From contig VXME01000025.1 of NCBI GenBank assembly GCA_009861545.1, forward strand, positions 2,346 to 66,345: DNA of 64,000 bases. The letters run 5' to 3'. Every line of letters starts with the position of its first letter. Position 1 is the first letter of the stretch. A program made the translations under genes and the position numbers. Below, one piece after another: positions 37,794-51,643 of this stretch. The DNA is from Acidobacteriota bacterium (GTDB lineage Bacteria; Acidobacteriota; Vicinamibacteria; Vicinamibacterales; UBA8438). A model generated the notes under the pieces. The model was not told the origin of the DNA. It ran no database searches and was given only the letters and a program-made list of their open reading frames with translations.

Positions 37794-38588
37794 TCAGGCC
37801 GCCGTTCCGGCGCGCGCGAGCTCCGCAAGACAGTCGTCCGCCAGCGGTTCGATCGGCGCGAAGTCACGATGCGCGATCCACGCCGCCCGCTTGAACCGCC
37901 GGATGTGGTTGTCGACGTGGCACAGCGACAGGTACACGATGCTGCGGCCGAACGGGCTGATGTTGGGCGGACTCGCATGCACGAGCGTGGAAGCGAAGAC
38001 GATGATGCTGCCGGGCGGCCCGGTCGGGGCCACGCAGCCGCCCCGCTCGGCGAGCCGCGTCACCGTGGCGCGGTCGAGCGTCCAGAGCGGATAACTCGTC
38101 GTCTCCAGGTCGTGGCCGGCCTCGAACACCCCCTGCTTGTGACTTCCCGGCAGGAACAGCAACGGCCCGTTGGCGGCGGTCACCTCGTCGAGGAACACGG
38201 CGATGTTCATCGCGCGCGGCTCCGGCATCCGATCATCGCGGTGCCAGGTGCCGAAGTCCTGGTGCCACTGCCAGACCTCGCCGTCGAACGCCGCCTTGGC
38301 ATTCACCTTGTACTGGTGCATGTAGACGGGGCCGTCGACGAGTTGCATCACCGGCTCGACCAGCCGGGGGTGGCGCCCGAGGCGGCGGAACGCCTCGTTG
38401 TAGGTGTGCGCGGCGAACGCGGTGCGGGCGACGCCGGTCGACTCGCGCCACACCTCCTCGCGGTCGAGCGCGTAGACCTCGTCCGCGGCGGCCCGCAGCA
38501 GCGCCGCCTCGTCGGCCGAGAAGCGTGACGGGAAGAACAGGTAGCCCTGCTCGTCGAACCGCGCGATCTCCTCGGGAGTCAGCTTCAT
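37794..38588 (-). CDS. phytanoyl-CoA dioxygenase (PhyH) family Fe(II)/2-oxoglutarate dioxygenase, ectoine-hydroxylase-like
   Basis: 'FDEQGYLFFPSRF'. 'VWQWHQDFGTWHRDDRMP' resembles the EctD signature FxWHSDFETWHxEDG(M/L)P. Confidence 0.85.
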   Translation of the reverse strand: MKLTPEEIARFDEQGYLFFPSRFSADEAALLRAAADEVYALDREEVWRESTGVARTAFAAHTYNEAFRRLGRHPRLVEPVMQLVDGPVYMHQYKVNAKAAFDGEVWQWHQDFGTWHRDDRMPEPRAMNIAVFLDEVTAANGPLLFLPGSHKQGVFEAGHDLETTSYPLWTLDRATVTRLAERGGCVAPTGPPGSIIVFASTLVHASPPNISPFGRSIVYLSLCHVDNHIRRFKRAAWIAHRDFAPIEPLADDCLAELARAGTAA

Positions 38589-38617
38589 GACGGTTCTCCC
38601 GGCTTACACTGGGCACC

Positions 38618-38995
38618 ATGCCCAACGCAGCCACCGTCACCAAGTTTACGTGGAACGACATGCCGAAGGAGCGGGTCACCAACCGCATCGACCGCCGCAT
38701 CGTGGCTGGCGAGAGCACGATGGTCGCGCACGTCTATCTGCAGAAGGGCGCGATCGTGCCGGAGCATTCGCACCACAACGAGCAGCTCACCTACGTCCTG
38801 AAGGGCAAGCTCCGGTTCTGGGTCGGCGACGACTTCTCGCAGGTCTTCGACGTCGGCGAGGGCGAGATCCTGCACCTTCCGTCGCACGTACCGCACAAGG
38901 CCGAGGCGCTGGAGGAGACGCTCGACGTCGACATCTTCAGTCCGCCGCGGCAGGACTGGCTGGACCACACGGACGACTACTTCAAGGATCAGTAG
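38618..38995 (+). CDS. cupin domain protein
   Basis: 'GAIVPEHSHHNEQLTYVLKGKLRFWV...GEILHLPSHVPHKAEAL' shows cupin motifs 1 and 2. Confidence 0.85.
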   Translation: MPNAATVTKFTWNDMPKERVTNRIDRRIVAGESTMVAHVYLQKGAIVPEHSHHNEQLTYVLKGKLRFWVGDDFSQVFDVGEGEILHLPSHVPHKAEALEETLDVDIFSPPRQDWLDHTDDYFKDQ

Positions 38996-39400
38996 GAACC
39001 GATGATGTCGATCCGAAAGACCCGGGAGTCGTAGAGGAGTCCTGGCCGCGTGCCTCGACGCCGAGTGCGGCCGGGTTGCGCCCTGGGCTGCGCGCCGGCC
39101 TACCAGACCGGTTGGCGCCAATCATCCAGACAGGAGCGCGACCGCAAACGGCGGCAGCGGCGCACCATCTTGGCTCACTTCGACGACCGACTGCGGTCCA
39201 CCGCCTGCCGCCGGACGCTCTCGACGTGCTATCTTGGCTGAGTGGCTGATTCTGTACCGCCAGCAAGCACGCATGGACGTCCGCCCCGTCGCTCCGGCAC
39301 CAGGGAGGGAGCCGGCGCCTCGGATCGGAAGGTCGGGACGAAGACAGGCGACCGACTTCGTTCACCGGGACACAGCGAGCAGTCGCTGAGCGACGTCCAG

Positions 39401-40357
39401 GTGTCCGACGCCGTAACCGACGCCGAACACCTGTTTCCGCTGGACAACCTCCTGAAGTGCGATTACTTCGTGAAGTATCGCAAGGGCTACTACAAGGCTC
39501 GGGACCTGAATCTCCTCAACCCGTACAGGAACTACGTTGAACTCCTGACGTCGTTGAGCGAGATTTACGCATACAACGAGCGACATGCAAGATCGTTCGC
39601 AAAGCGAATCACGGCGAACGCGAGCGACTTCGGACAGTGTGAGGCGGTGTTCGCGGAGATAATCGTCTATCGTCACTACGTAAGGCCTGTTCACGAAGAC
39701 CTGGTTCGCCGGGTAGAACTCCACGAATCCGAAGCCGATGTTATCGTCGAACGGCCGGACGGCTCCAGGATGTTCCTCGAAGTCTTCAGCGTCAATCCGG
39801 ATTTTCCCATAGCGAAGAGAGGCGAGAAGCCAATCGTGAAGGACGTCAGGACGCATACCCAAAACGCCATGGCGTCGATCCGCCAGAAGCTGCTTCGAAA
39901 AATCAAGAGACAGAAGCAGATGTCTGCGCCGCGCGAGAACTATGCGGTCATCGAACTCAACAATCCCTCGATTGCGGGCGATTTCTCCGTCCTTTCGTCC
40001 CTGTCCGGCGGATACAAGGTGCAGCTCGACAGACGCACGCTACGGCCGGTGTCCTCCGGCTATGACTGGGGCGAATCAATTTTCAATGATCCAGCCACTC
40101 GATTCCTCAAGGGCATCATATATTTCAGCCTGGGTGACTATTCATCCAGGAAGTATCTATTGAATCCTGAAACGAGGCGGACCGATCAGGCTCCACTCGG
40201 TGAACGTTTCGATATGGACCAGTTTCTGCACGAAGCCAGACCCAGGATCTTCGATCCGGATGGAAATGTCACAGCGAGCGAAGGATTCGACGTCGATGAC
40301 TTTGTTCGGACGATCCACGAGGGCCGTGGCGTGGAGCGAAAGGACCTCTCGGATTGA
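39401..40357 (+). CDS. hypothetical protein, no recognisable family; 3' end translationally coupled to PIN toxin gene
   Basis: The ORF is open from 39242. The GTG at 39401 is a guess, placed where composition turns A/T-richer and coding-like. A possible weak PD-(D/E)xK-like block is 'AEIIVYRHY..ADVIVERPDGSRMFLEVFSV'. Confidence 0.5.
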   Translation: MSDAVTDAEHLFPLDNLLKCDYFVKYRKGYYKARDLNLLNPYRNYVELLTSLSEIYAYNERHARSFAKRITANASDFGQCEAVFAEIIVYRHYVRPVHEDLVRRVELHESEADVIVERPDGSRMFLEVFSVNPDFPIAKRGEKPIVKDVRTHTQNAMASIRQKLLRKIKRQKQMSAPRENYAVIELNNPSIAGDFSVLSSLSGGYKVQLDRRTLRPVSSGYDWGESIFNDPATRFLKGIIYFSLGDYSSRKYLLNPETRRTDQAPLGERFDMDQFLHEARPRIFDPDGNVTASEGFDVDDFVRTIHEGRGVERKDLSD

Positions 40358-40743
40358 TCGTCCTGGACACGAACGTCGTTTCCTACATCTTCGGTGGAGA
40401 CGACCGCGCCCAGTACTACATCGAACAGATCCGTGGTAGTCGAGCGCTGATCTCTTTTCAGACGCTGGAGGAGCTCTGGTACGGCGCGTTCGCCAAGGGC
40501 TGGGGCATACGGCGGAAGAACGAGCTCGCCCGCCATATCGAGCAATACGAAATCGTCTGGACCGGGCCCGAACTTGCGAAGGTGTGCGCGCGCCTGCGCA
40601 GCGAACGCCGGTCGGCCGGCCGCGAGATGAACTCCGCTGACGCCTGGATAGCCGCCACCGCCATCCTGCTGGAGTGCCCTCTTGCTTCGCATGACCGTGA
40701 CTTTTCCGAAATCCCGGGGCTGGAACTCATCCGGTCTTCGTGA
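40354..40743 (+). CDS. vapC: PIN domain ribonuclease toxin (VapC family)
   Basis: 'IVLDTNVVSYIF', 'SFQTLEELWYGA' and 'ADAWIAATAILLECPLASHDRDF' carry the acidic PIN residues. The TTG start overlaps the upstream TGA. Confidence 0.85.
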   Translation: MIVLDTNVVSYIFGGDDRAQYYIEQIRGSRALISFQTLEELWYGAFAKGWGIRRKNELARHIEQYEIVWTGPELAKVCARLRSERRSAGREMNSADAWIAATAILLECPLASHDRDFSEIPGLELIRSS

Positions 40744-41503: not shown

Positions 41504-41563
41504 GGAACGATTCAACGTCCCGCGCGCCCCGCGGTGCCACCCAATGTGCCATGGGGCGTGCAG

Positions 41564-41604
41564 GGGAGCGACCCGCCGGAAACCTGCCGGGCCGGGTCGC
41601 TCCC
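41564..41604. terminator. GC-rich hairpin between convergent genes (possible bidirectional terminator)
   Basis: The 12-bp perfect stem GGGAGCGACCCG (41564-41575) pairs with CGGGTCGCTCCC (41593-41604) around a 17-nt loop, followed by 'ttcaaaag' (weak T tract). Confidence 0.35.
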
Positions 41605-41640: not shown

Positions 41641-42342
41641 TCAAGCACGTGATCTTGAGTGCGCTCCGTCGCTGTAGCCGTGCCGCCGGAGCATCGCGAT
41701 GAACTCGGTTGGGTCAGTGGTGGCCGTGCGCAGGCTACGGTTCTTGAGCAGGGCGACGTACAGGGCGCAAGACCGAGCCTGACAGTTGATGGACTTGTCT
41801 GGATTGAATTCGATATCCGTAAACGCGTCGAACCCGACGAGCGCGTCATCGATCTCACCGTCCCGCTCGGCCAGAGCGCCCAACGCCCGGACATAGAGCC
41901 AATCGTAGAACGCTGTCTTCGGGGTGAGTTCCCAGTCGCGCCCGTCGAAACGGAATCCGGTCAGGTGATCGCCGGAGAACTGCCTCATGTACCGCTTCAC
42001 GTCACGGCCGGATCGCACCGAGTACAAGTGGGTGAATGGACCCCGAGCACCGAAGACCTTCGAGCCTTGGAAGGCCGCCTCCAGCAGGATCGGATTCGGC
42101 TGAGCATCGATCTCGATCGACAGACTGAAGGCACTGAGCCGCACTCCTAGTGGATTCGCCGACTTCGTAGACACCTCCAGCACGCTAGACGTGCCTAGAT
42201 CGGTCGCAGCCGACCGGTGAAGTGACTCGACGCAGCGCCGCTTCTGGCTCGCGGCGAAACCCGAGAACCACTCGAATTCAACGATTCGTTCTTCGACCAG
42301 GTAACCAGCGGGATCCGGGACGAATAGAGGACGTTTGGCCAT
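41641..42342 (-). CDS. hypothetical protein, putative cognate partner of DarT-like ART (not macrodomain/NADAR-like by eye)
   Basis: 233 aa, starting 32 nt downstream of the DarT-like ORF. Distinctive blocks are 'FEWFSGFAASQKRR', 'LEAAFQGSKVF', 'AFYDWLYVRAL' and 'FTDIEFNPDKSINCQARSCALYVAL'. Confidence 0.7.
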   Translation of the reverse strand: MAKRPLFVPDPAGYLVEERIVEFEWFSGFAASQKRRCVESLHRSAATDLGTSSVLEVSTKSANPLGVRLSAFSLSIEIDAQPNPILLEAAFQGSKVFGARGPFTHLYSVRSGRDVKRYMRQFSGDHLTGFRFDGRDWELTPKTAFYDWLYVRALGALAERDGEIDDALVGFDAFTDIEFNPDKSINCQARSCALYVALLKNRSLRTATTDPTEFIAMLRRHGYSDGAHSRSRA

Positions 42343-42373
42343 CGGACTGCAACCTGTGCCTTACGATGCCGAC

Positions 42374-43081
42374 TCAACGTTTGTAGCCCCGAATGGTCTT
42401 GGAGAGTTCATTTCGGTCGAATAGGTCCTTCTGGACGTCAACAGTCGGCGGTTCTACAGGCCAACTCGGGAGTGGTTTGTCAGTGGGCCAAATCGCGAGC
42501 AAGGGCGCGACGCTCGCCTTGACCGCATCCGATTCGACGACTATCTGGACAATGGCCCAAGTTGGAACGGCGTGTCTTACTAGGACTTCAGCTTGAATGT
42601 CGGTCGGGCAGTTCGGAAGACGATACTCTTGTCGACGGCGTCCCCGCGCGGACACGCGTGGCTGGAACATCGATTCGAACCCTTCGATACCGTCCTGGAC
42701 AAGGTCGCCGCGCGCAGTCGCGGCGTTGACCGGCGAGAATCTTGTACTCGGAAGCGCGAGTAGGACAGGCGTCAGACACAGATGAACCCACTCTTGCTCA
42801 GGTCGTTCCTTGCGGTAGTCGTCGAGCAAGTAGACGTTCGGATACTCAATCGAACAGCACACGTAATCCCGATGACGGTCCAATCGTCGGGGGTCGTTCA
42901 CCACTCCGTTGACGCCCCGATTGAGCAGGCTCCGCGTCGATGCGATTTCGCGGGCGGCGATGATCCCTGCCAGCGACGTGACGCGTGTGAAGTGGACGAG
43001 ACGGGTGATCGCAAGTTCCTTGATCCGTCGTAGTATTTGGCCGTTGAACGTAGCGGCTGACATGGCGTCCGTGACCGTCAT
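42374..43081 (-). CDS. DarT-like (DUF4433-like) ADP-ribosyltransferase
   Basis: Ordered blocks 'RLVHFTRVTSLAGII', 'DYVCCSIEYPNVYLL', 'FSPVNAAT' and 'IQAEVLVRHAVPTWAIVQIVV' match my recollection of the DarT H-Y-E motif order (h-H-h-T; D-Y-V-x-F-Y-F; x-A-E-h-L-V). Confidence 0.65.
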   Translation of the reverse strand: MTVTDAMSAATFNGQILRRIKELAITRLVHFTRVTSLAGIIAAREIASTRSLLNRGVNGVVNDPRRLDRHRDYVCCSIEYPNVYLLDDYRKERPEQEWVHLCLTPVLLALPSTRFSPVNAATARGDLVQDGIEGFESMFQPRVSARGRRRQEYRLPNCPTDIQAEVLVRHAVPTWAIVQIVVESDAVKASVAPLLAIWPTDKPLPSWPVEPPTVDVQKDLFDRNELSKTIRGYKR

Positions 43082-43215
43082 GGAGCGTCGACGCGCCCGC
43101 TACAGGCGCCGCTGCGTGCCGTCAGGCGAGCTTCACGGGTGGCGACAGACATGGCACCAGTAAGACTGCCGACCATGATCAGGAGCATGACGCCCTGGAT
43201 CCACGGTTTCGTCAT
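43078..43215 (-). CDS. 45-aa predicted membrane peptide (below ORF-track cutoff)
   Basis: Own translation: MTKPWIQGVMLLIMVGSLTGAMSVATREARLTARSGACSGRVDAP*. GAGG lies upstream and its TGA overlaps the DarT-like ATG (ATGA). Confidence 0.35.
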   Translation of the reverse strand: MTKPWIQGVMLLIMVGSLTGAMSVATREARLTARSGACSGRVDAP

Positions 43216-43250
43216 GACAACCTCGGCGGGAGCCCGTGGATCTGGTTCCA

Positions 43251-43460
43251 TCATGGGAAGAACACGAGCTTGATCAGCAAGCCGAGAATGGCTGGCCCGT
43301 AGCCGAACTTCAGCAACTTCATGTCGGCTTTCAGGTCGGCGATTGCCGCCTTCAGGTCATTGCCGATCCGTCCGATCTCGGTCTGCATGCGGTTGACGTC
43401 ACGTTCGAGGTCGAGCTTGGTCACCAAGTCTTCGCGGCCAGTGACCATCCTTCGGATCAT
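43251..43460 (-). CDS. small coiled-coil protein with C-terminal TM helix (DUF1640/XhlA-like)
   Basis: 'DLVTKLDLERDVNRMQTEIGRIGNDLKAAIADLKADMKLLKFGYGPAILGLLIKLVFFP' shows heptad-like repeats followed by a hydrophobic tail. Confidence 0.5.
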   Translation of the reverse strand: MIRRMVTGREDLVTKLDLERDVNRMQTEIGRIGNDLKAAIADLKADMKLLKFGYGPAILGLLIKLVFFP

Positions 43461-43573: not shown

Positions 43574-46541
43574 TCAGTAGTACTGCCGGATGTAGCCATA
43601 GGCCCGGTCGAACAGCTCCTGGTCCTGGTGCAGGCGGTACTTGAACAACGTCTTTCGGAGCGCCCTCTTCACCTCCCGCTCGCCGGCCTTGGTCGTCTGC
43701 CAGCCCTCGAAGCGCACGTGCCGGACGATCTCGTCGATGTCGTTGACGACTCGCTCGACCATGACGGGCGTACGGTCGTTGCGGGCTTCCTCGAACAGCT
43801 CCGTCAGGGCGGCCTTGCCGCGCTCCTCGGGCGTTGCCGGCTCGACGGTCCGCTCTGCCTCTACCACGTCGCGGGCCAGATCGAGCAGTGACTTGAGGAA
43901 CTCGATACTGACGAGCAGCCCTTGCTCGTGCTTCTGCCGCAGCGCTTCGAGCCGCTCGCCGAGCGCGCGAAAGCGGGGGTCGCTCAGATGTCTGCGAAGC
44001 CGCTCGACGACCCTGATCTCGATCTCCTTCGACTTCTTCTCCGGGTCCGTCGTGCCGAGCACGGCGTCCAGCACGTCGGCGTCGAGCACCAGCGTCTCCA
44101 GGTCGTCGCGCACGGCCTCGACGTGAACGTGCCGGTGGATGAGGTCGATGGTCTTGGCGCCGAGCGTGTGCCAGAGGAGCTTGTCCGTTCCCGTCGAGGG
44201 CTTCAGCGACTCGTACACCTGGCCCAGCCAGCCGTGGTCGGCTTCGTACGGCTCCAGACTCGGGTCGGGGGAAATCGCGTCCCAGAGGCGCGCCAGGTAG
44301 CTGTAGTCGGCGGCGAATCCGTCGCGTGTCTCATTGTCCGGGAGACACTCCTGCGCGGCGATCAGTCCCTCGTAGCCGGTGACCGTGCGATCTACCCCGG
44401 AGAACCACGCCAGGCATTTCTGCACCGCCGCAGGAAGCGCGGCGACCAGCTCATTGAGGTTCGTGACGACGCGGGTGATGCCCTCCTCGTCGAACTGGAT
44501 CGCCTGGGCCACATCGTCGAATACCCCGAGGTAGTCGACGATCAGCCCGTGGGTCTTGGTCTCGCCGTACGGCCGGTTCGTGCGGCAGATGGCCTGCAGC
44601 AGCGTGTGGTCACGCAGCGGCTTGTCCAGGTACATCGCCTGCAGGATGGGCGCATCGAAGCCGGTCAGCAGCTTCGACGTGACAATCAGCAACTTGAGCG
44701 GGTCGTTCGGATCGCGGAAGCGGTCGAGCAGCCGCTCTTCGGCGTCCCGGTCCCGGCGGTAGGCGGCGTACTCGTCCTCTCCGCTGTTGACGGTCATGAC
44801 GACATCGGACATCTCGACGGGCAACACCCGGTCGAGCGCCTGCTTGTACAGCAGGCAGCCTTCACGGTCGTAGGTGACCACCTGCGCGCCAAAGCCGTTG
44901 GGAGCCACCTTCTCCTGGAAGTGCTTCGCGATGTCGACGCAGATCCGCTCGACCCGTTCCGGCGTCTTCAACAGCACCGCCGTGCGGGCCGCGGTCTTCG
45001 AGAGTTGCTCCCGATCCAGGTCGCTCAGCCCACCGGTCAGCTCCTGGTACTCGGCGTCAATGGAGGCCCGGTCGATGTGCAGCTCCGGCAACCGCGGCTC
45101 GAAGTGCAGCGGCTTCGTCGCGCCGTCTCGGATCGACTCCTCGAAACCGTAGCGGCTCAGGTAGCCGTATTCATCCTCCTCGGCGCCGAAAGCGAAGAAC
45201 GTGTTCCGGTCGGCGCGGTTGATCGGGGTCCCGGTCAGTCCGAACAGGAACGCGTTGGGGAGCGCCCTGCGCATCTTCCGCCCGAGGTCCCCTTCCTGAG
45301 AACGATGGGCCTCGTCGACCAGCACGATGATGTTTGTGACGGTCGTTCAGGACACCGTCCACCTCGCCGAACTTGAAGATCGTCGTGATGATGATCTTCC
45401 GAGCGTCCTGCGCGAGCAACCGTTCGAGATCCGCCCGGCTGTCGGCCTTCTCCAGATTCGGCGCGTCGGCCGCGTGGAAAGTGCTGGATATCTGCGTGTC
45501 GAGGTCGATCCGGTCGACCACGATGATCACCGTCGGGTTTCCCAACGCCGGATGCAGCCGCAGCTTGCGGGCCGCGAACAGCATCAGGAGCGACTTGCCG
45601 GAACCCTGGAAGTGCCAGACCAGGCCCTTCTTGGGGTGGCCGGCGACGACCCGTTCGACAATGCGGTTCGCCGCCTCGACTTGTTGGTAACGTGCGACGA
45701 TCTTGGCTCGCCGCTTCCCCTTGCCCGTGGCGTAGGCCGTGTAGCTGCCCAGCAGATCCAGAACCGTGTGGGGGCGCAGCATGGACGAAACGGTCTGCCT
45801 GATTCGTTCGAGGGCCGGCGTACCTGCGTCGTCGTCCGCCCGCCACGGTCCCCAGAGATCGACCGGCAGGCCGATCGATCCGTATCGCAGGTCTTTCCCT
45901 TCGGTGGCGACCGAGCAGAGGTTCGGCACGAACAGATCGGGCACGTTGCGCTCGTAGTCGTCGTGGATCTGCGTTGCCCCGTCGAACCAGCTCTGACTCG
46001 ACCGCACCGGCGTCTTCGCCTCGATGACGACCAGCGGCAGGCCGTTCACCAGCAGCACGAGATCCGCGCGGCGCTCGTTCGCACCCGATCGGACGGTGTA
46101 CTGCATGCTGACGACATACTGGTTTCGCTCGACGTCCTCATGGTCGACGAGCCGCACGGTGACGTGCTCGCCGTCCGCGCCGAACGGCATCGACCGCTCT
46201 CCGGCGAGCCACGCTGCGAACTCCTCGTTCGCCTTGACCAGCCCGTCCGTCCGCACGCCCATCAGAAAGGCGCGCAGCCGGTACAGCACGTCGTCGGCCC
46301 TATCCGGCTGCGCCGCGATCTCCGGGTTGAGGCGGAGCAGCGCTTCGCGCACGTGGTCCTCGACGAGGACCTCGTGTGCCTGTCGCGGAAGGTGCTGCGG
46401 CCCGAGGTAGTGCCATCCGAGGCCGGAGAGCGCGCCGTGCCGCCGAGCGAGACCGGGTCCGACCGCCGTGTGGTGGGTTACGCCGCCGCAGAGGATGTCA
46501 CGGACGAGGGCCTCGACCGTGTTCGACTCGGTGAAGGTCAT
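43574..46541 (-). pseudogene. hsdR: type I restriction enzyme R subunit, interrupted by a 1-nt frameshift
   Basis: The N-terminal ORF 45171..46541 ('ADLVLLVNGLPLVVIEAK' nuclease core; 'WHFQGSGKSLLM' Walker A) and the C-terminal ORF 43574..45325 ('LVDEAHRSQ' DEAH box; 'TGTPI'; 'QAICRTNR') are in different frames. Coding-strand sequence '...gac cgt cac aaA cat c...' has one extra A (plus-strand TTT at 45333-45335) relative to the '..DRHNIIVLVDEAH..' reading. Confidence 0.85.
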
Positions 46542-46567: not shown

Positions 46568-46924
46568 CTACGACACGCCGGCACCCTGGCCGGGTTCGAT
46601 CACAAGCAGCGTCGTGTCCGGTTCGGTGGTGAACGTTTCGATCTCATCGCGGTGGCTACGGAGACGCCGTTCAATCTCGCTGGTCGAGCAGTTGCCGAGC
46701 GCCAGCCAGACTACTTTCGGCGGCGCACCGTACAGGGAGGATCGACCGCTGAAGTCGCCGTCCTTCGACACGATGGTGAAGCCGTGCTGCCTCGCGTACG
46801 CCCAGACGGCCGAGTCGTCCGCGGCCGCCAGACCGACCGCTCGAACGTGAACGACCTCGGTCCAGACGTCGCGAAGGCGGTCGCACAGCCGCGGCGAGAG
46901 ATTCTGGTCGAGGAGCAGCTTCAC
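46568..46924 (-). CDS. DUF5615 (Mut7-C/PIN-like) family protein, putative toxin
   Basis: GTG start at 'VKLLLDQNLSPRLCDRLRDVWTEVVHVRAVGLAAADDSAVWAYARQHGFTIVSKDGDF'. It overlaps the upstream stop (GTGA). Confidence 0.75.
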   Translation of the reverse strand: MKLLLDQNLSPRLCDRLRDVWTEVVHVRAVGLAAADDSAVWAYARQHGFTIVSKDGDFSGRSSLYGAPPKVVWLALGNCSTSEIERRLRSHRDEIETFTTEPDTTLLVIEPGQGAGVS

Positions 46925-47148
46925 CTTCCGCCGACCGCAACCAGTCGCCGCTCGCGATCCGCGGCGAATGCGAGACAGGCCCGGATGTCTTCGCGCGTCA
47001 GATCCGGGAAGTCTCGGAGGAGGTCGTCCTCGGACATGCCGGACGCCAGGTAGTCGAGCACGTCGGAGACCGTCATGCGCAGGCCACGGATACACGGCTT
47101 GCCGCTGCGTTTTCCGGGCTCGATCGTGATCCGGTCCAAGTGCGCCAT
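46921..47148 (-). CDS. DUF433 family protein, putative antitoxin
   Basis: Start moved to 'MAHLDRITIEPGKRSGKPCIRGLRMTVSDVLDYLASGMSEDDLLRDFPDLTREDIRACLAFA', the typical DUF433 pattern. Confidence 0.75.
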   Translation of the reverse strand: MAHLDRITIEPGKRSGKPCIRGLRMTVSDVLDYLASGMSEDDLLRDFPDLTREDIRACLAFAADRERRLVAVGGR

Positions 47149-47410
47149 CGGCTCAGAGTACGAAACGTCCCGCCATCGGTCAAGCGGCTGGGCGGAGGGA
47201 CGCATGCCACGAAACGCCCTTGTTCCATACCTCGCGCAGCCAGGCGACGCCAACCGCGTGACCGGGTCATCCGCGGCTACGCTCACGGAATGAGCCGTTC
47301 GCCCTCTTGGACCCAGCGAAGGGTATCGGCCGGCTACACGCGCATCGTGGTGGCGATTCGTCTCCACGACTGAACGCTCTCATGCTTGTGAATACTGTCA
47401 CTGGCGGCGC

Positions 47411-48574
47411 CTACAAGGCGGACGAGAGCATGGTGGACCGCATCCGCTTCAACGCGCGTAGTCGACGTTCTACCGAGGAGCACGCCGCCCTCACGCCGCC
47501 TGCCCTTCGGAGGATGGCATCCTGGATGTCAGACGACGGTAACGCAATGGATAGCCGGCGGACGGCGTGCCCATTGATCTTCTTCATGCTTGCGCTCGTC
47601 CCGGCCGCGAAGCACTCAATCTGTCGTCGCCCCGCCGCCGAACGGAGATACAGTTCCAGGAAGTGAGGACGAGCAACGGATCGGTCCGGTCGCAATCTCA
47701 TCATCGTATCCGGCCATGACACGTCGCATCGATCCTCGTTGAAGATGCCCGACAACCCGACGCGCTCACGCGTATTGGAGCGAGAAATCAATAGGTCACC
47801 TGCCTCAACGACGGAGTTGAGCATGGCGGGGGTTCGCTGGACTTGCTTGAGCCGTCCGGGACGATACCCGGACTTCGTTAGCGCATCGAGCCCCAGTACC
47901 CAGTGTCCGGTCGGAGTAGACGATTCGATGGCCGAACAGCCGTTTCGAGGCGCTTCGGTCAACAAGGAACCAAGTGCGACGCCTCTCGTGTCGGAGTTGG
48001 CGACCAAGGTGTCGAACACGCTGGCCTGCGCTAACTGCGCAGCTTCGACAAGTGCAAAGAGAGCCTCCGTAGCGCGGTCAATCTCCCGAAGAGTGACAGC
48101 GATCCGACGCTGTTCGTCCAGCGGCGGCAGGGCGAACTCGTACGTCGCGAGACTCTGCCAGTTGGTCCGAGGCGACAGAGACCCTGCCGATGTGCCGATG
48201 GCGTGCTTGAAAAACGCATCGGTCTGGCAGATAAACGGTAGCAGTTTCGGCAGCAGGTAGCCCTTGTTCCTCGACTCCAGCACGTAGATATCCCCGCTAC
48301 AGACGCCGCTGAAATCCGGGACGGCGACCTTGCGGAGGTAAGCGCGGCGCTTTCCGAACAACACTTGACCGGGCCGGAAGAGGCTCGTGAACGTGGTGCC
48401 GCCGCCCACGTCGCCCCAGCGTCGAATCGCAAGTTCGCCGGGGTCCAGATGCTCCAGGCCGACGTAGCGACCGACGCCAGCGGCCTCGGGACTTGACGAC
48501 CGTTCGGGGCTGCGCTTGACGACATCCCCGAAGGCGACCAGCGTCCAGCCGGGCTTGAGCTTGGCGCTACCCAT
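47411..48574 (-). CDS. hsdS: type I restriction-modification specificity subunit
   Basis: Two TRD-like halves with conserved spacers ('LPPLDEQRRIA', 'ALPSSDIQDAI'). The start overlaps the hsdM stop by 8 nt. Confidence 0.85.
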   Translation of the reverse strand: MGSAKLKPGWTLVAFGDVVKRSPERSSSPEAAGVGRYVGLEHLDPGELAIRRWGDVGGGTTFTSLFRPGQVLFGKRRAYLRKVAVPDFSGVCSGDIYVLESRNKGYLLPKLLPFICQTDAFFKHAIGTSAGSLSPRTNWQSLATYEFALPPLDEQRRIAVTLREIDRATEALFALVEAAQLAQASVFDTLVANSDTRGVALGSLLTEAPRNGCSAIESSTPTGHWVLGLDALTKSGYRPGRLKQVQRTPAMLNSVVEAGDLLISRSNTRERVGLSGIFNEDRCDVSWPDTMMRLRPDRSVARPHFLELYLRSAAGRRQIECFAAGTSASMKKINGHAVRRLSIALPSSDIQDAILRRAGGVRAACSSVERRLRALKRMRSTMLSSAL

Positions 48575-50096
48575 CGGATCGGCTCTCCGCAGCGATCCGC
48601 TCGATCATCGCGACCACGTCTTCCATCTCCGACCAGAACGCTTTGTTGCCGGCGTCGAAATCGCTCCACGCGTCCCGCAGATCACCTCCAATCTGGGTGT
48701 CGGTGTCCGAGTGAGCGATCCGCGGGACGTAGCGGGGAATGGACAAGTTGCCGTCGTTGGCAAGCACGTCGTCGTTGGGCACGACGGCGGCGATTCCAGG
48801 CTCGGCGCCGAACGCGTCGTACGCCGTCAGGATCCGCTTCTGATGCTCCGGCGTCAGGAAGCTCTGCGCCCGCTCCCGCGCTACTTGTCGAACCGCGTCG
48901 ATGAACAGCACCTTGCCGCGGCGCTCGGGCGGCTTCCGCGTCCGGCAGACCACGACGCACGCCTCCATCGGCGAGTTGTAGAACAGGTTCGGCCCCAAGC
49001 CGAGCACGCACTCGATGAGGTCGCGCTCGATCAGGGCGCGCCGCATCGCTGCCTCCTCCTGCCGGAACAGGACGCCGTGCGGGAAGAGGATGGCGCAACG
49101 GCCGGTACTCCGGTCGAGGCTCTCGAGAATGTGCTGAAAGAAGGCGTAGTCGGCCCGTCCCTGCGGCGGCGTGCCGAGGATGTTGCGGCCCCACGGGTCG
49201 TCGAGCCACGCGTCCCGGTTCCAGGTCTTGATCGAATACGGCGGATTGGCGAGCACCACGTCGAACCTCATCAGGCGGTCCCGCTCGATGAAGGCGGGAT
49301 CGCTCAGCGCGTTGCCAACGGCGATCCGGAAGTCCTCGACGCCGTGCAGCACGAGGTTCATCCGCGCAATGGACGCCGTCGTGCCGATGATCTCCTGGCC
49401 GTAGAGGCCGAGCGTCCGGGCATCGCCGCCGTTGCGCCGCACCTCCGCCAGCGCGGAGATGAGCATGCCGCCGGTGCCGGCCGTCGGGTCGTAGATGCGC
49501 TCGCCCGACCGCGGCCGGAGCATCCGGGTCATCAGGTGCACCAGCGTCCGGTTGGTGTAGAACTCCTGCGCCGTGTGGCCGCTGTCGTCGGCGAACTGCT
49601 TGACGAGGTACTCGTAGGCGTTGCCCAGCTCGTCTTCCGGCACCGCGGCGAGGCTCAGCGTGTGCTTCGAGAAGTGCTCGACCAGGTTCTTGAGCGTCTC
49701 GTCCGGCATCTGCGCCTTGTCGGTCCAGGGCGCGTTCCCGAAGACGCCGGCGAGACGCTCCGGGTTGCCTGTCTCGATGGCGCGGAACGCGTTGCGCAGC
49801 GTCCGGCCCACATCGCGCGCCGCACGGCGGACATCGGACCAGTGCGCCCCGGTCGGGATGACGAACCGGTCGTTGGCGGTCGCCTCTGCGTACCCGCGGT
49901 CGCCGGTCTCATCGAAGGCGTGCCCGTAGTCCTCGTCCCACACGTCCGAGAGGCGCTTGAAGAAGAGCAGCGGGAAGACGTACTGCTTGTAGTCGCCGGC
50001 GTCGATCAGTCCCCGCAGGAGGTTGGCCGCCCTCCAGAGGTACGACTCCAGTGCCTGCTGGCCCAGGTGCCGCGGGGAGGGATGCGCGTCAGCCAC
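48567..50096 (-). CDS. hsdM: type I restriction-modification N6-adenine DNA methyltransferase subunit
   Basis: GTG start at 'VADAHPSPRHLGQQALESYLWRAANLLRG..YKQYVFPLLFFKRLSDVWDE' (HsdM N-terminal domain). 'YDPTAGTGGML' is the AdoMet motif I and 'ANPPYS' is motif IV. Confidence 0.9.
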   Translation of the reverse strand: MADAHPSPRHLGQQALESYLWRAANLLRGLIDAGDYKQYVFPLLFFKRLSDVWDEDYGHAFDETGDRGYAEATANDRFVIPTGAHWSDVRRAARDVGRTLRNAFRAIETGNPERLAGVFGNAPWTDKAQMPDETLKNLVEHFSKHTLSLAAVPEDELGNAYEYLVKQFADDSGHTAQEFYTNRTLVHLMTRMLRPRSGERIYDPTAGTGGMLISALAEVRRNGGDARTLGLYGQEIIGTTASIARMNLVLHGVEDFRIAVGNALSDPAFIERDRLMRFDVVLANPPYSIKTWNRDAWLDDPWGRNILGTPPQGRADYAFFQHILESLDRSTGRCAILFPHGVLFRQEEAAMRRALIERDLIECVLGLGPNLFYNSPMEACVVVCRTRKPPERRGKVLFIDAVRQVARERAQSFLTPEHQKRILTAYDAFGAEPGIAAVVPNDDVLANDGNLSIPRYVPRIAHSDTDTQIGGDLRDAWSDFDAGNKAFWSEMEDVVAMIERIAAESRSDG

Positions 50097-50137: not shown

Positions 50138-51643
50138 TCACTCCAGCCAGCCATCCTCGACCAGCACGCGTCGCAGGCGATCCTCGGCGGCGCGGGCTTC
50201 CGTCAACGCCGTCTTGAAGGCAGCCAGCGCCTCGGGCAGCGGCGGGATGTCCTGGCCGATGGGCGGCAGGACGTAGCGAGAGATGTTGAGCGTCCAGTCT
50301 TCGCCCTCGATGTCCTCCGTCGAGACGACCTTGGCCCGGTTCTCCACGTCCCGGAAACGCCGCACCCAACCGACGATCTGTTCGGCATGCCCCGGGTCGA
50401 GGAAGTTCTGCGCCCGGCCCTTGCGGAACAGGCTCGACGCGTCGATCACGATCACCCTGCCGCGCCGGCCGTGTCGCTTCGCGCGGCGCAGCGTCACCAC
50501 CGCCGGGGCGAGACCCGTGCCGTGGAAGATGTTGGGCGCGAGCCCGATCACCGCCTCGATCAGATCCTGCTCCAGCAGCGCCCGGCGGATGCGTCCCTCC
50601 GCGCCCTTGCGGAACAGCGCCCCCTGCGGCAGCACGACAGCCATCCGGCCCGAATCTTCCGCCATCGACGCCACCATCTGCTGGACCCAGGCGTAGTCGC
50701 CGTAGCTCGCCGGCGGCAGGCCGAAGGCGGCGCGGCCCCACGGATCCGCCTCCCACACCTCGCGGCCCCACTCCTTGAGCGAGAACGGCGGGTTGGCGAT
50801 GACGCAGTCGAACGTCGCCAGAGCGCCGGACGCGTCGGTGAAGGCCGGGCCGCGGAGCGTGTCGTTCTGCTCGATCCGGAAGTCCTCGACGCCGTGCAGC
50901 ACGAGGTTCATGCGCGCAATCGACGACGTGGTCAGGTTCTTCTCCTCGCCGAAGATGCGACCGAAGAAGGTCCGCGGGTCGCCGCCGGCCCGCTCGACGT
51001 GCTCGATCGCACCGAGCAACATGCCGCCGGTGCCGCAGGCCGGATCGTAGATGCTCTCGCCCTCCTGCGGATCGAGCAGATCGACCATCATCCGCACCAC
51101 GCTCCGTGGGGTGTAGAACTCACCCGCCTTCTTGCGCCGCGTGATGTCGGCGAACTTGCCGATCAGGTACTCGTAGGCGTCGCCGAGGATGTCGGACCCG
51201 ACCTTCGTGTTGCCCAGCGGCACCACGGACAGTCCCTCGATGAGGTCCTTGAGCAACTCGTCGCCGAGCATCTCGCGGTTGCCCCAGTCGGCCGCGCCGA
51301 AGACGCGCGTCAAGGTGTGGGGGTTGGCCCGTTCGATCGCCCGCATCGCCCGCGCCAGCGCCGTGCCGACACGGGCCGGCGTCTCGCGGACGTCCCGCCA
51401 GTGGCACGCGTCCGGCAGCTTGAAGCGGTGCAGCTCGGGAAAGACGCCCAGGTCGATGTCGCCGTATTCCTCCCGCGCCTCGGCCGTCTCCTCGTCCCAG
51501 ACGTCGCTGATCCGCTTGAAGAACAGCAGCGGAAGGATGTAGCCCTTCCAGTCCGTCCGGTCGACGGCGCTGCCGCGGAGAATCTCCGCGCACCTCCACA
51601 GCTCGGACTTCAAATCCTTCAGGGTCAGTTGATTCGCCGGCAT
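50138..51643 (-). CDS. hsdM: second type I N6-adenine DNA methyltransferase subunit (tandem paralog, no own hsdS)
   Basis: 'LKSELWRCAEILRGSAVDRTDWKGYILPLLFFKRISDVWDEE', 'YDPACGTGGML' and 'ANPPFS'. Collinear with 48567..50096. Confidence 0.9.
   Translation of the reverse strand: MPANQLTLKDLKSELWRCAEILRGSAVDRTDWKGYILPLLFFKRISDVWDEETAEAREEYGDIDLGVFPELHRFKLPDACHWRDVRETPARVGTALARAMRAIERANPHTLTRVFGAADWGNREMLGDELLKDLIEGLSVVPLGNTKVGSDILGDAYEYLIGKFADITRRKKAGEFYTPRSVVRMMVDLLDPQEGESIYDPACGTGGMLLGAIEHVERAGGDPRTFFGRIFGEEKNLTTSSIARMNLVLHGVEDFRIEQNDTLRGPAFTDASGALATFDCVIANPPFSLKEWGREVWEADPWGRAAFGLPPASYGDYAWVQQMVASMAEDSGRMAVVLPQGALFRKGAEGRIRRALLEQDLIEAVIGLAPNIFHGTGLAPAVVTLRRAKRHGRRGRVIVIDASSLFRKGRAQNFLDPGHAEQIVGWVRRFRDVENRAKVVSTEDIEGEDWTLNISRYVLPPIGQDIPPLPEALAAFKTALTEARAAEDRLRRVLVEDGWLE

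Follow-up and report, generated by a model that had tools for sequence, protein, structure and literature searches.

The closest described relatives of the gene pair analysed here are the DarTG1 systems of Escherichia coli C7 and Geobacter (Trichlorobacter) lovleyi (Schuller et al., 2023, PMC11543638; PDB 8BAQ, 8BAR, 8BAS and 8BAT), in which a toxin gene is followed by a gene for a single-domain NADAR protein. DarT1 enzymes have a conserved serine where the H-Y-E motif has its tyrosine (S63 of the E. coli C7 enzyme), and mutagenesis has identified R52, D54, M71, N104 and E152 as essential (PMC11543638). M71 of the E. coli C7 enzyme stabilizes the oxocarbenium ion, K74 contacts the guanine N7, and K74 and Y75 together provide the guanine contacts. 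In the cognate NADAR (E. coli C7 numbering) the catalytic residues are E88, K95 and D171, the last an aspartate and not the glutamate of YbiA-type proteins, and K115 is specific to DarT1-NADARs (PMC11543638). Phage defence by DarTG1 is documented and was tested in E. coli (PMC11825919), and a defence role is also attributed to LeRoux (2022), as cited by PMC9503650; the structures, chemistry and defence role of this family were published between 2022 and 2025.

Two further groups provide points of comparison. The DarTG2 systems of Thermus, M. tuberculosis and EPEC (7OMV–7OMY, 7YK3) pair a DarT2 toxin, which modifies thymine in TNTC motifs by way of H119 and Y71, with a DarG partner made up of a macrodomain and a C-terminal DarT-binding domain. 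Orphan NADARs of phages, such as AdfN of T-even phages, belong to the NADAR superfamily and remove DarT1-made ADP-ribose from DNA (PMC11825919).

Results

The window, a 64,000-nt stretch of DNA from an Acidobacteriota bacterium, carries on its minus strand at 41641–43081 two genes whose sequences indicate that they very probably form a canonical DarT1–NADAR (DarTG1) toxin–antitoxin pair, a kind of system already characterized. The four minus-strand ORFs listed in the initial annotation were all found (Table 1), as were the sequence blocks it had quoted from their products. The second ORF encodes 58 aa from its first ATG, or 45 aa if translation begins at the ATG of 43215, and the overlap of its TGA with the darT ATG (ATGA) is confirmed by the sequence. 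The description of a tight four-ORF run holds as geometry but not as organization, since comparison with two related loci, L001 and L002, reveals the small ORFs to be products of deletions of ~105 and ~290 nt. The expected co-occurrence of the two larger genes is borne out elsewhere: in eight other NADAR-linked loci (L001–L004, L007, L008, L014 and L085) a DarT1-type NADAR gene lies 3′ of darT on the same strand, with order and strand conserved and a gap of 17–111 nt. The sole matches of the pair in the PDB by phmmer are 8BAQ and 8BAT, both from the same characterized kind of system.

Table 1. Features of the darT1–nadar locus, in window coordinates.
Feature	Position	Strand	Basis or description
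~2-kb cassette common to L001 and L002	41563..43543	-	blastn, 83–96% DNA identity
Perfect 12-bp GC-rich hairpin	41564..41604	-	inverted repeat GGGAGCGACCCG/CGGGTCGCTCCC, 17 nt between arms
nadar (darG1), single-domain DarT1-associated NADAR, predicted ADP-ribosyl-guanine hydrolase, putative antitoxin	41641..42342	-	PF22397, 8BAT
darT–nadar spacer	42343..42373	-	31 nt, read from sequence
darT1, DarT1-type ADP-ribosyltransferase, putative toxin	42374..43081	-	PF14487, PADLOC, PDB, fold
Remnant ORF, 58/45 aa	43078..43254	-	~290-bp deletion joins start of 97-aa gene to darT leader
Conserved 5′ leader of darT	43082..43149	-	homologous to L001 and L002 5933–6000
Remnant ORF, 69 aa	43251..43460	-	5′-deleted copy of a gene for a 101-aa protein with coiled coil and C-terminal TM segment

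The 235-aa protein belongs to the DarT family, as had been proposed, with residues 30–194 matching PF14487 at E=8.1e-18 (65.3 bits; cutoff 22.5) and a PADLOC DarT match at 1.6e-8; PF14487 is likewise present in all 44 homologues with precomputed Pfam annotation (P0045 has none). A phmmer search of the PDB returned only DarT1 of E. coli C7 (8BAQ, 1.4e-14), and none of the DarT2 structures matched at E≤1. An AF2 model (pLDDT 92) has 8BAQ as its best Foldseek match with TM 0.84 and an rmsd of 2.4 Å, as compared with TM 0.55–0.63 and 5.4–6.4 Å for the DarT2 entries. By sequence and by predicted fold, the protein is thus closer to DarT1 than to DarT2.

The initial annotation had correctly assigned the histidine block (H30) and the catalytic glutamate (E165 in QAEVLV), which align with H17 and E152 of E. 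coli C7 DarT1. Its tyrosine block, DYVCCSIEYP, marks the right region, but the position of the H-Y-E tyrosine is occupied here by the serine conserved in DarT1 enzymes, S77. Across 25 homologues H30, F31, T32, D63, R66, D68, S77, N119, Q163 and E165 are invariant, and seven of these (R66, D68, N119, E165, H30, F31 and S77) are also invariant in 86 locus-derived sequences. Four of the five essential DarT1 residues are kept, as R66, D68, N119 and E165, the fifth, M71, being replaced by L85. This substitution falls within the ARTT loop, where F72, Y73 and K74 are also replaced (by L86, D87 and D88) while Y75 persists as Y89; with M71 essential in E. coli and K74 a guanine contact, these differences count against the DarTG1 reading. 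Among nine NADAR-linked toxins, however, the M71 position is occupied by L, V or M in eight and the Y75 position by Y in eight, the other replaced positions being variable; since NADAR-linked toxins mostly carry L, V or M there, the change of M71 is typical of the class. The window toxin bears the NADAR-linked signature, with N62, an aliphatic side chain at position 85 and Y89, and groups with NADAR-linked relatives in a neighbour-joining tree, midpoint-rooted and without support values, which was used for this grouping alone and not for DarT1 monophyly.

The 233-aa partner, which had been described as having no NADAR layout, is a full-length DarT1-type NADAR. It matches the Pfam family of DarT1-associated NADAR antitoxins, PF22397, at E=1.1e-74 (250.9 bits; cutoff 27), residues 2–217 covering profile positions 1–211 of 212, and the crystallized G. 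lovleyi DarT1-NADAR (8BAT) at E=1.6e-49 over residues 1–218, with ~47% identity over the aligned residues as counted by eye. Chance cannot account for the Pfam matches of either protein. The blocks that could not be assigned in the initial annotation hold the NADAR catalytic sites, E88 and K95 in LEAAFQGSK and D176 in FTDIEF. Together with K116, these residues are invariant in nine DarT-linked NADARs (those of the window, 8BAT and seven loci); they correspond to E88, K95, D171 and K115 of the E. coli C7 protein in a mapping made by motif and spacing. The equivalent of E173 (E178) varies among the aligned NADARs, in agreement with its published dispensability.

The generic NADAR/YbiA Pfam model gave no match to the partner at E≤1, which is probably why the NADAR layout was missed by eye, and PF25214 matched below threshold only. 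PADLOC v2 and NCBIfam were likewise silent, leaving PF22397 as the only model to recognize this type of NADAR. DarT1-type NADARs are far diverged from the YbiA type, and such pairs are therefore easily mistaken for novel systems. The reported absence of a macrodomain is confirmed, there being no Macro Pfam match at E≤1, and a diverged macrodomain as partner was rejected on this ground. Membership of DarTG2 was rejected because a single NADAR domain takes the place of the macrodomain.

Discussion

The window pair shares with the DarTG1 systems of E. coli C7 and G. lovleyi its two-gene, toxin-first arrangement, the DarT1 fold predicted for its toxin, the serine in place of the H-Y-E tyrosine, the equivalents of R52, D54, N104 and E152, and in its NADAR the equivalents of all four catalytic or class-specific residues. 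It differs from them in its uncultured host lineage, and its toxin is only ~25–35% identical to DarT1 of E. coli C7, from which it is further set apart by its ARTT loop and by ~27 additional residues, most of them in an extension of the C terminus that bears the conserved tail LFD...IRGYKR. With DarTG2 the pair has in common the ART superfamily (PF14487) and, by analogy, would share the logic of reversible DNA-base ADP-ribosylation and a combined toxin–antitoxin and defence role; unlike DarTG2, it has no macrodomain partner, its toxin fold is clearly less similar (rmsd above 5 Å), and the guanine-coordinating asparagine (N119) and the serine S77 stand in place of H119 and Y71 of DarT2. Unlike the orphan NADARs of phages, which are stand-alone counter-defence genes of other NADAR clades, the NADAR of the window is of the PF22397 type, linked to its cognate toxin.

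From the literature on these relatives, the toxin of the window pair would be expected to be harmful to the cell and specific for guanine, the NADAR to rescue from it, and the pair to defend against phage. By homology to DarTG1 of E. coli C7 and of G. lovleyi, the toxin would use NAD+ to ADP-ribosylate the guanines of single-stranded DNA at their N2 amino group, and the modified guanines would block replication with a bacteriostatic outcome. In uninfected cells the NADAR encoded downstream would neutralize the toxin by hydrolysing ADP-ribosyl-guanine; upon phage infection the activity of the toxin may escape this control, so that phage DNA becomes modified.

The neighbourhood of the pair bears on its role. 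The initial annotation had placed it at the distal end of a type I R-M operon, and in the window it does lie just downstream of hsdR. The same ~2-kb cassette, with 88% DNA identity, recurs, though, in L001 and L002 in surroundings that are unrelated (an OMP and a kinase in L001, ApeA-HEPN and AAA_13 in L002); its flanks differ in all three loci, blastn homology to L001 and L002 stopping at 41582 and 41563, respectively, on the 3′ side, and also about 30 nt past the hsdR stop. No hsd genes occur in the neighbourhoods of L001, L002 or L003, the last of which has DruA, a helicase and Dnd-associated genes. Recurring in three unrelated neighbourhoods, the cassette therefore does not belong to the type I R-M operon, and the pair travels with it, having landed in varied defence or mobile-element contexts. 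Scanning the whole window for Rfam families and tRNAs as clues to an integration site returned nothing. Placed as it is among defence and toxin–antitoxin genes, the DarT protein could plausibly serve in defence, as had been suggested. A genuine DarT1–NADAR pair might instead serve mainly for the addiction or stabilization of a mobile island, or regulate growth. The variety of mobile contexts, the presence on the island of other toxin–antitoxin-like pairs (DUF433/DUF5615 and a VapC-like PIN) and the growth regulation ascribed to M. tuberculosis DarTG2 in PMC12170906 are consistent with such a function; the phage defence afforded by DarTG1 in E. coli and the defence genes adjoining the relatives in L002 and L003 argue against it. 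We regard this reading as unlikely, and addiction or regulation and phage defence are in any case not mutually exclusive.

A second question is whether the pair still functions. The shortened small ORFs and an apparent 1-nt frameshift in hsdR, which lies at an AAA run (45333–45335) and may be a homopolymer error of long reads, suggest that the island may be under relaxed selection, and ~290 bp upstream of the darT leader are deleted, which makes expression of darT and nadar less certain. A scan for sigma-70-like promoters found none, although the sigma-70 consensus is a poor test in a genome of 65–70% GC. The only site called by a terminator scan lies inside the 69-aa ORF and is within chance expectation. 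A GC-rich hairpin 37 nt past the nadar stop, at the 3′ edge of the cassette, is a probable terminator, one that the consensus scan does not call because it lacks a T-tract. Against decay to an inactive relic, both ORFs are full length by comparison with their homologues (100% coverage), all catalytic residues checked in the two products are intact, and the ~65-nt leader directly upstream of darT has been kept. That the pair is an inactive relic on an island in decay is thus distinctly unlikely, and a functional DarTG1 pair remains the preferred reading.

Within this DarTG1 assignment, the altered ARTT loop (K74 to D, Y73 to D and M71 to L) and the conserved C-terminal extension of this acidobacterial-type DarT1 clade might signify a sequence or base preference, or a mode of toxin–antitoxin contact, other than that of E. 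coli C7 DarT1, and in an ancestral cassette of the L001/L002 type the two small membrane proteins might also have served as accessories; we consider this quite improbable.

The two small upstream ORFs had been taken as members of a four-gene module, and their products, both with predicted hydrophobic, TM-like segments, could on that account be seen as a sensor, a membrane anchor or a second effector. They accompany the cassette at three independent loci, those of the window, L001 and L002, and in the window and L002 the stop of the first overlaps the start of the second (ATGA). Each locus, however, shows its own pattern of damage. The 101-aa gene, intact at L001 5276–5581, has lost an internal stretch in L002, where 34 aa remain, and in the window a ~105-nt alignment gap leaves the 69-aa ORF without the native GAGGAA/ATG start region and ~31 codons. 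The gene for a 97-aa, three-TM, glycine-zipper-like protein is intact at L002 5536–5829 and apparently frameshifted in L001, where a read error of the same kind may likewise be the cause; in the window only its first ~36 codons, which start with the ATG at 43254 and encode the first TM helix, remain in the 58-aa ORF, with the deletion junction at 43149 by the break in blastn and tblastn coverage confined to residues 1–43. The darT leader, which in the relatives is non-coding and lies 3′ of the stop of the 97-aa gene, has thereby become the tail of the 45/58-aa ORF.

A search of the window and 85 loci found the small ORFs in the window, L001 and L002 only, so that they are missing from L003/L004, L007, L008, L014, L085 and all other DarT loci. 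The 101-aa form has no Pfam match, the intact 97-aa form has glycine-zipper matches below cutoff only (E=0.003), and every match to PHROGs exceeds 0.04. Since the characterized DarTG1 systems also need two genes only (PMC11543638), a four-gene module is very improbable. Not components of the system, the two tiny ORFs are what decay has left of two genes for small membrane proteins that accompanied the cassette in this lineage. Tight packing of ORFs in a high-GC genome can thus come from deletions and not from operon structure.

A new class of reversal enzyme, neither macrodomain nor NADAR, can be dismissed as hardly credible despite the silence of the Macro, generic NADAR/YbiA, PADLOC and NCBIfam models, because the dedicated PF22397 model fits the partner end to end, the G. 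lovleyi crystal structure is a close match and the once unassignable blocks contain the catalytic residues, which leaves an ordinary DarTG, the very outcome that the initial annotation had named as refuting its idea. The window pair adds one DarTG1 system from an uncultured, high-GC lineage and matters little in itself.

A separate observation from the survey, outside the window, concerns distant DarT relatives, most of which pair, at 67 loci, with an ARH/DraG-type hydrolase. No credible remnant of a NADAR was found at E≤10 beside the orphan DarT of L005/L006, and a literature search returned no description of an ARH-linked DarT pairing and no named DarT3. The ARH-linked toxins are 31–42% identical to the window toxin and have the same invariant catalytic core; unlike it, they carry T, Y/F and A/V at the positions of N62, L85 and Y89. 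Their partner is a PF03747 ADP-ribosylglycohydrolase of 520–820 aa, which in some cases also has a glyoxalase/VOC domain. As ARH is the third ADP-ribosylhydrolase superfamily, its pairing with DarT would make a possible third type of DarTG, and this clade may be of more interest than the pair in the window.

A DarT1-NADAR toxin-antitoxin pair

The 233-aa partner, the sequence blocks of which were unassigned in the initial annotation, matches PF22397 ("DarT1-associated NADAR antitoxin", E=1.1e-74) with residues 2-217 on profile positions 1-211 of 212, and among all PDB sequences it matches 8BAT alone, the NADAR of Geobacter lovleyi (E=1.6e-49, residues 1-218). The blocks form the NADAR active site: LEAAFQGSK contains E88 and K95 and FTDIEF contains D176, which corresponds to E. 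coli D171; K116 is the counterpart of the DarT1-NADAR-specific K115. These four residues are invariant across the window partner, 8BAT and seven other DarT-linked NADARs; the position equivalent to the dispensable E173 varies among DarT-linked NADARs. The proposal of a novel class of antidote is refuted by this NADAR assignment, the very outcome named beforehand as refuting it.

The 235-aa toxin matches PF14487 (DarT; E=8.1e-18) and the PADLOC DarT model (1.6e-8), its sole match among all PDB sequences being E. coli C7 DarT1 (8BAQ/8BAR/8BAS; E=1.4e-14). An AlphaFold2 model built on 25 homologues (mean pLDDT 92.1, pTM 0.89) was compared with the PDB by Foldseek, with 8BAQ as the top match (E=5e-14, TM 0.84, rmsd 2.4 Å), followed by structures of DarT2, the toxin of macrodomain-paired DarTG2 (7OMY, 7OMV and 7YK3; TM 0.55-0.63, rmsd 5.4-6.4 Å). 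For E. coli C7 DarT1, the published residues H17, F18, T19, N48, D49, R52, D54, S63, N104, Q150 and E152 were transferred through a HMMER alignment to H30, F31, T32, N62, D63, R66, D68, S77, N119, Q163 and E165, respectively; H30, F31, T32, D63, R66, D68, S77, N119, Q163 and E165 are invariant in the 25-homologue alignment and near-completely conserved among 86 locus-derived sequences. The ARTT loop differs from that of E. coli C7 DarT1 in that M71, F72, Y73 and K74 are replaced by L85, L86, D87 and D88, whereas Y75 is retained as Y89. The change from M71 to L85 is typical of the NADAR-linked class, since these toxins usually carry a leucine or valine at this position.

The window pair is an ordinary DarT1-NADAR (DarTG1), a further example of a known system, and both proteins are family members with intact active sites. 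By homology to the system defined in the study from which structures 8BAQ/8BAR/8BAS and 8BAT derive, a toxin-antitoxin system of reversible guanine ADP-ribosylation (Schuller et al. 2023, PMC11543638), the toxin would move ADP-ribose from NAD+ onto guanine N2 of ssDNA, with E165 predicted to polarise NAD+, N119 and Y89 to position the guanine and R66 and D68 to take up the proton, while the NADAR partner would hydrolyse the adduct via E88, K95 and D176. In E. coli, DarTG1 confers protection against phages, which counter it with orphan NADARs (PMC11825919).

No PADLOC v2 or NCBIfam model detects the partner, and the NCBIfam DarT model scores the toxin at 21 bits, far under its 150-bit cutoff. 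Automated defence annotation would probably miss this DarTG system.

Deletion products upstream of darT

The four consecutive minus-strand ORFs of the initial annotation are present in the ORF listing, in a region of 59-61% GC compared with 67-71% in the flanks, and the TGA of the second small ORF does share bases with the ATG of the toxin. The two tiny ORFs preceding the toxin exist as read, but not as intact genes. Neither falls into a Pfam or PHROG family, and tblastn matches them in L001 and L002 alone, the loci with the closest toxin relatives, with no counterparts in L003 or more distant DarT1-NADAR loci. Their intact forms are a 101-aa protein (coiled coil and C-terminal TM) in L001 and a 97-aa three-TM protein in L002. 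Alignment A2 and blastn place different lesions in each locus: in the window the 101-aa gene has lost ~105 nt, among them the GAGGAA/ATG start region and ~31 codons, and the 97-aa gene has lost ~290 bp at 43149; L001 has a frameshifted 97-aa gene and an intact 101-aa gene; L002 retains 34 codons of the 101-aa gene and an intact 97-aa gene. After the ~290-bp deletion the 97-aa gene keeps one of its three TM segments and no stop codon, and what remains is fused to the conserved non-coding darT leader. Given these differing lesions and this fusion, the window "69-aa" and "45-aa" ORFs are deletion products, and the ATGA overlap with darT therefore belongs to the leader and not to a conserved gene.

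Features of the window and of related loci
Feature	Locus	Coordinates	Strand	Remarks
hsdM, first of tandem pair	window	50138-51643	-	N6_Mtase + HsdM_N
hsdM, second of tandem pair	window	~48567-50050	-	N6_Mtase + HsdM_N
hsdS	window	47411-48574	-	
DUF433/DUF5615 PIN-like pair	window	46568-47367	-	toxin-antitoxin-like; PF04255, 1e-25; PF18480, 5e-32
hsdR, two overlapping ORFs	window	45171-46541 and 43574-45325	-	
69-aa ORF	window	43251-43460	-	
58-aa ORF	window	43078-43254	-	58 aa from first ATG, 45 aa from ATG at 43215
235-aa ORF (toxin)	window	42374-43081	-	darT
233-aa ORF (partner)	window	41641-42342	-	NADAR
Perfect 12-bp hairpin	window	41564-41604		end of cassette homology
220-aa and 371-aa ORFs, VapC-like PIN gene	window	38587-40743	+	PIN gene PF01850, 9e-19
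101-aa gene, intact	L001	5276-5581		
97-aa gene, intact	L002	5536-5829		
OMP, kinase	L001			neighbours
ApeA_NTD1/HEPN_Apea, AAA_13	L002	3482-4813 and 8464-10746		neighbours
DruA, DEAD/ResIII helicase, AAA_15/23, Dnd-associated gene	L003	1-540 and 7841-12819		neighbours
DruA, helicase, Dnd-associated genes	L004			neighbours, as L003
DarT1-like gene	L005	6001-6744		also in L006
ARH-linked locus	L011	4696-6501		
ARH-linked locus	L017	4687-6492		
ARH-linked loci	L041, L059			

A cassette within a defence island

DNA homology to L001 and L002 (blastn, 83-96% identity) delimits a cassette from ~43543 to 41563-41582. The type I R-M operon lies upstream in the same orientation, and the pair had been placed at its distal end; the pair does not belong to that operon, as cassette homology begins ~30 nt past the hsdR stop and the relatives' neighbourhoods are unrelated. 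A PF22397 gene directly follows the toxin in all closest homologues (56-77% identity), the surroundings of which otherwise have nothing in common. The presence of other defence genes beside the cassette in L002 and L003 is consistent with movement between defence islands. The window pair itself lies in a defence/TA island, and the genes that follow downstream, a HAD hydrolase and a VapC-like PIN gene, are encoded on the opposite strand.

The R-M genes comprise two tandem hsdM to a single hsdS, and across the stretch examined the second methylase lacks an obvious S or R partner; the DUF433/DUF5615 pair is inserted after hsdS and ahead of hsdR. The split in hsdR falls just ahead of the DEAH box, and an intact 988-aa HsdR is regained when a single A is taken out of the AAA run (45333-45335); either hsdR is a true pseudogene, leaving the R-M system with methylation alone, or the homopolymer was misassembled. 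The names of related contigs, ctg..._8x_l, suggest that these assemblies were built from long reads at low coverage. On the plus strand, the segment with the lowest GC of the region (55-60%) carries two ORFs lacking any Pfam or PADLOC match, the 371-aa one overlapping at its end the start of the VapC-like PIN gene, and may be further island cargo. No tRNA gene or Rfam family reached threshold across the whole 64-kb window (1-64000).

Relatives of the toxin and their partners

Among 185,579 species genomes scanned, 171 stretches encode relatives, and 80 of these were fetched; the nearest come from Vicinamibacterales and Thermoanaerobaculia MAGs (Acidobacteriota), which suggests, short of proof, that the window belongs to this phylum. 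With the window NADAR as tblastn query, 8 of the 85 loci show a homologue downstream. L005 and L006 (Vicinamibacterales MAG) encode a DarT1-like protein, 54% identical and with catalytic motifs present, beside IS genes that include a DDE transposase. A NADAR is absent from the surrounding 4-6 kb, and the toxin appears either to be an orphan or to have lost its antitoxin through IS insertion.

Outside the window, most of the distant relatives (31-42% identity) have another kind of partner: in 67 of the 80 genome loci (among L010-L084) a 520-820-aa PF03747 ADP-ribosylglycohydrolase (ARH/DraG type; E=1e-31 to 1e-45) lies downstream, mostly overlapping or abutting the darT stop and in some cases bearing a C-terminal glyoxalase/VOC domain. 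A NADAR or macrodomain partner is absent from these loci, and no specific NCBIfam or PADLOC model exists for the ARH-type partner. The toxins retain the entire catalytic core, but differ from E. coli DarT1 in having T for N48, Y/F for M71 and A/V for the guanine-contacting Y75. The searchable literature on DarT partners mentions Macro and NADAR alone and does not describe an ARH pairing, which may constitute a third DarTG type; it occurs in cyanobacteria, Desulfobacterota, Lachnospiraceae, Burkholderiales, Micromonosporaceae and one Bathyarchaeia MAG.
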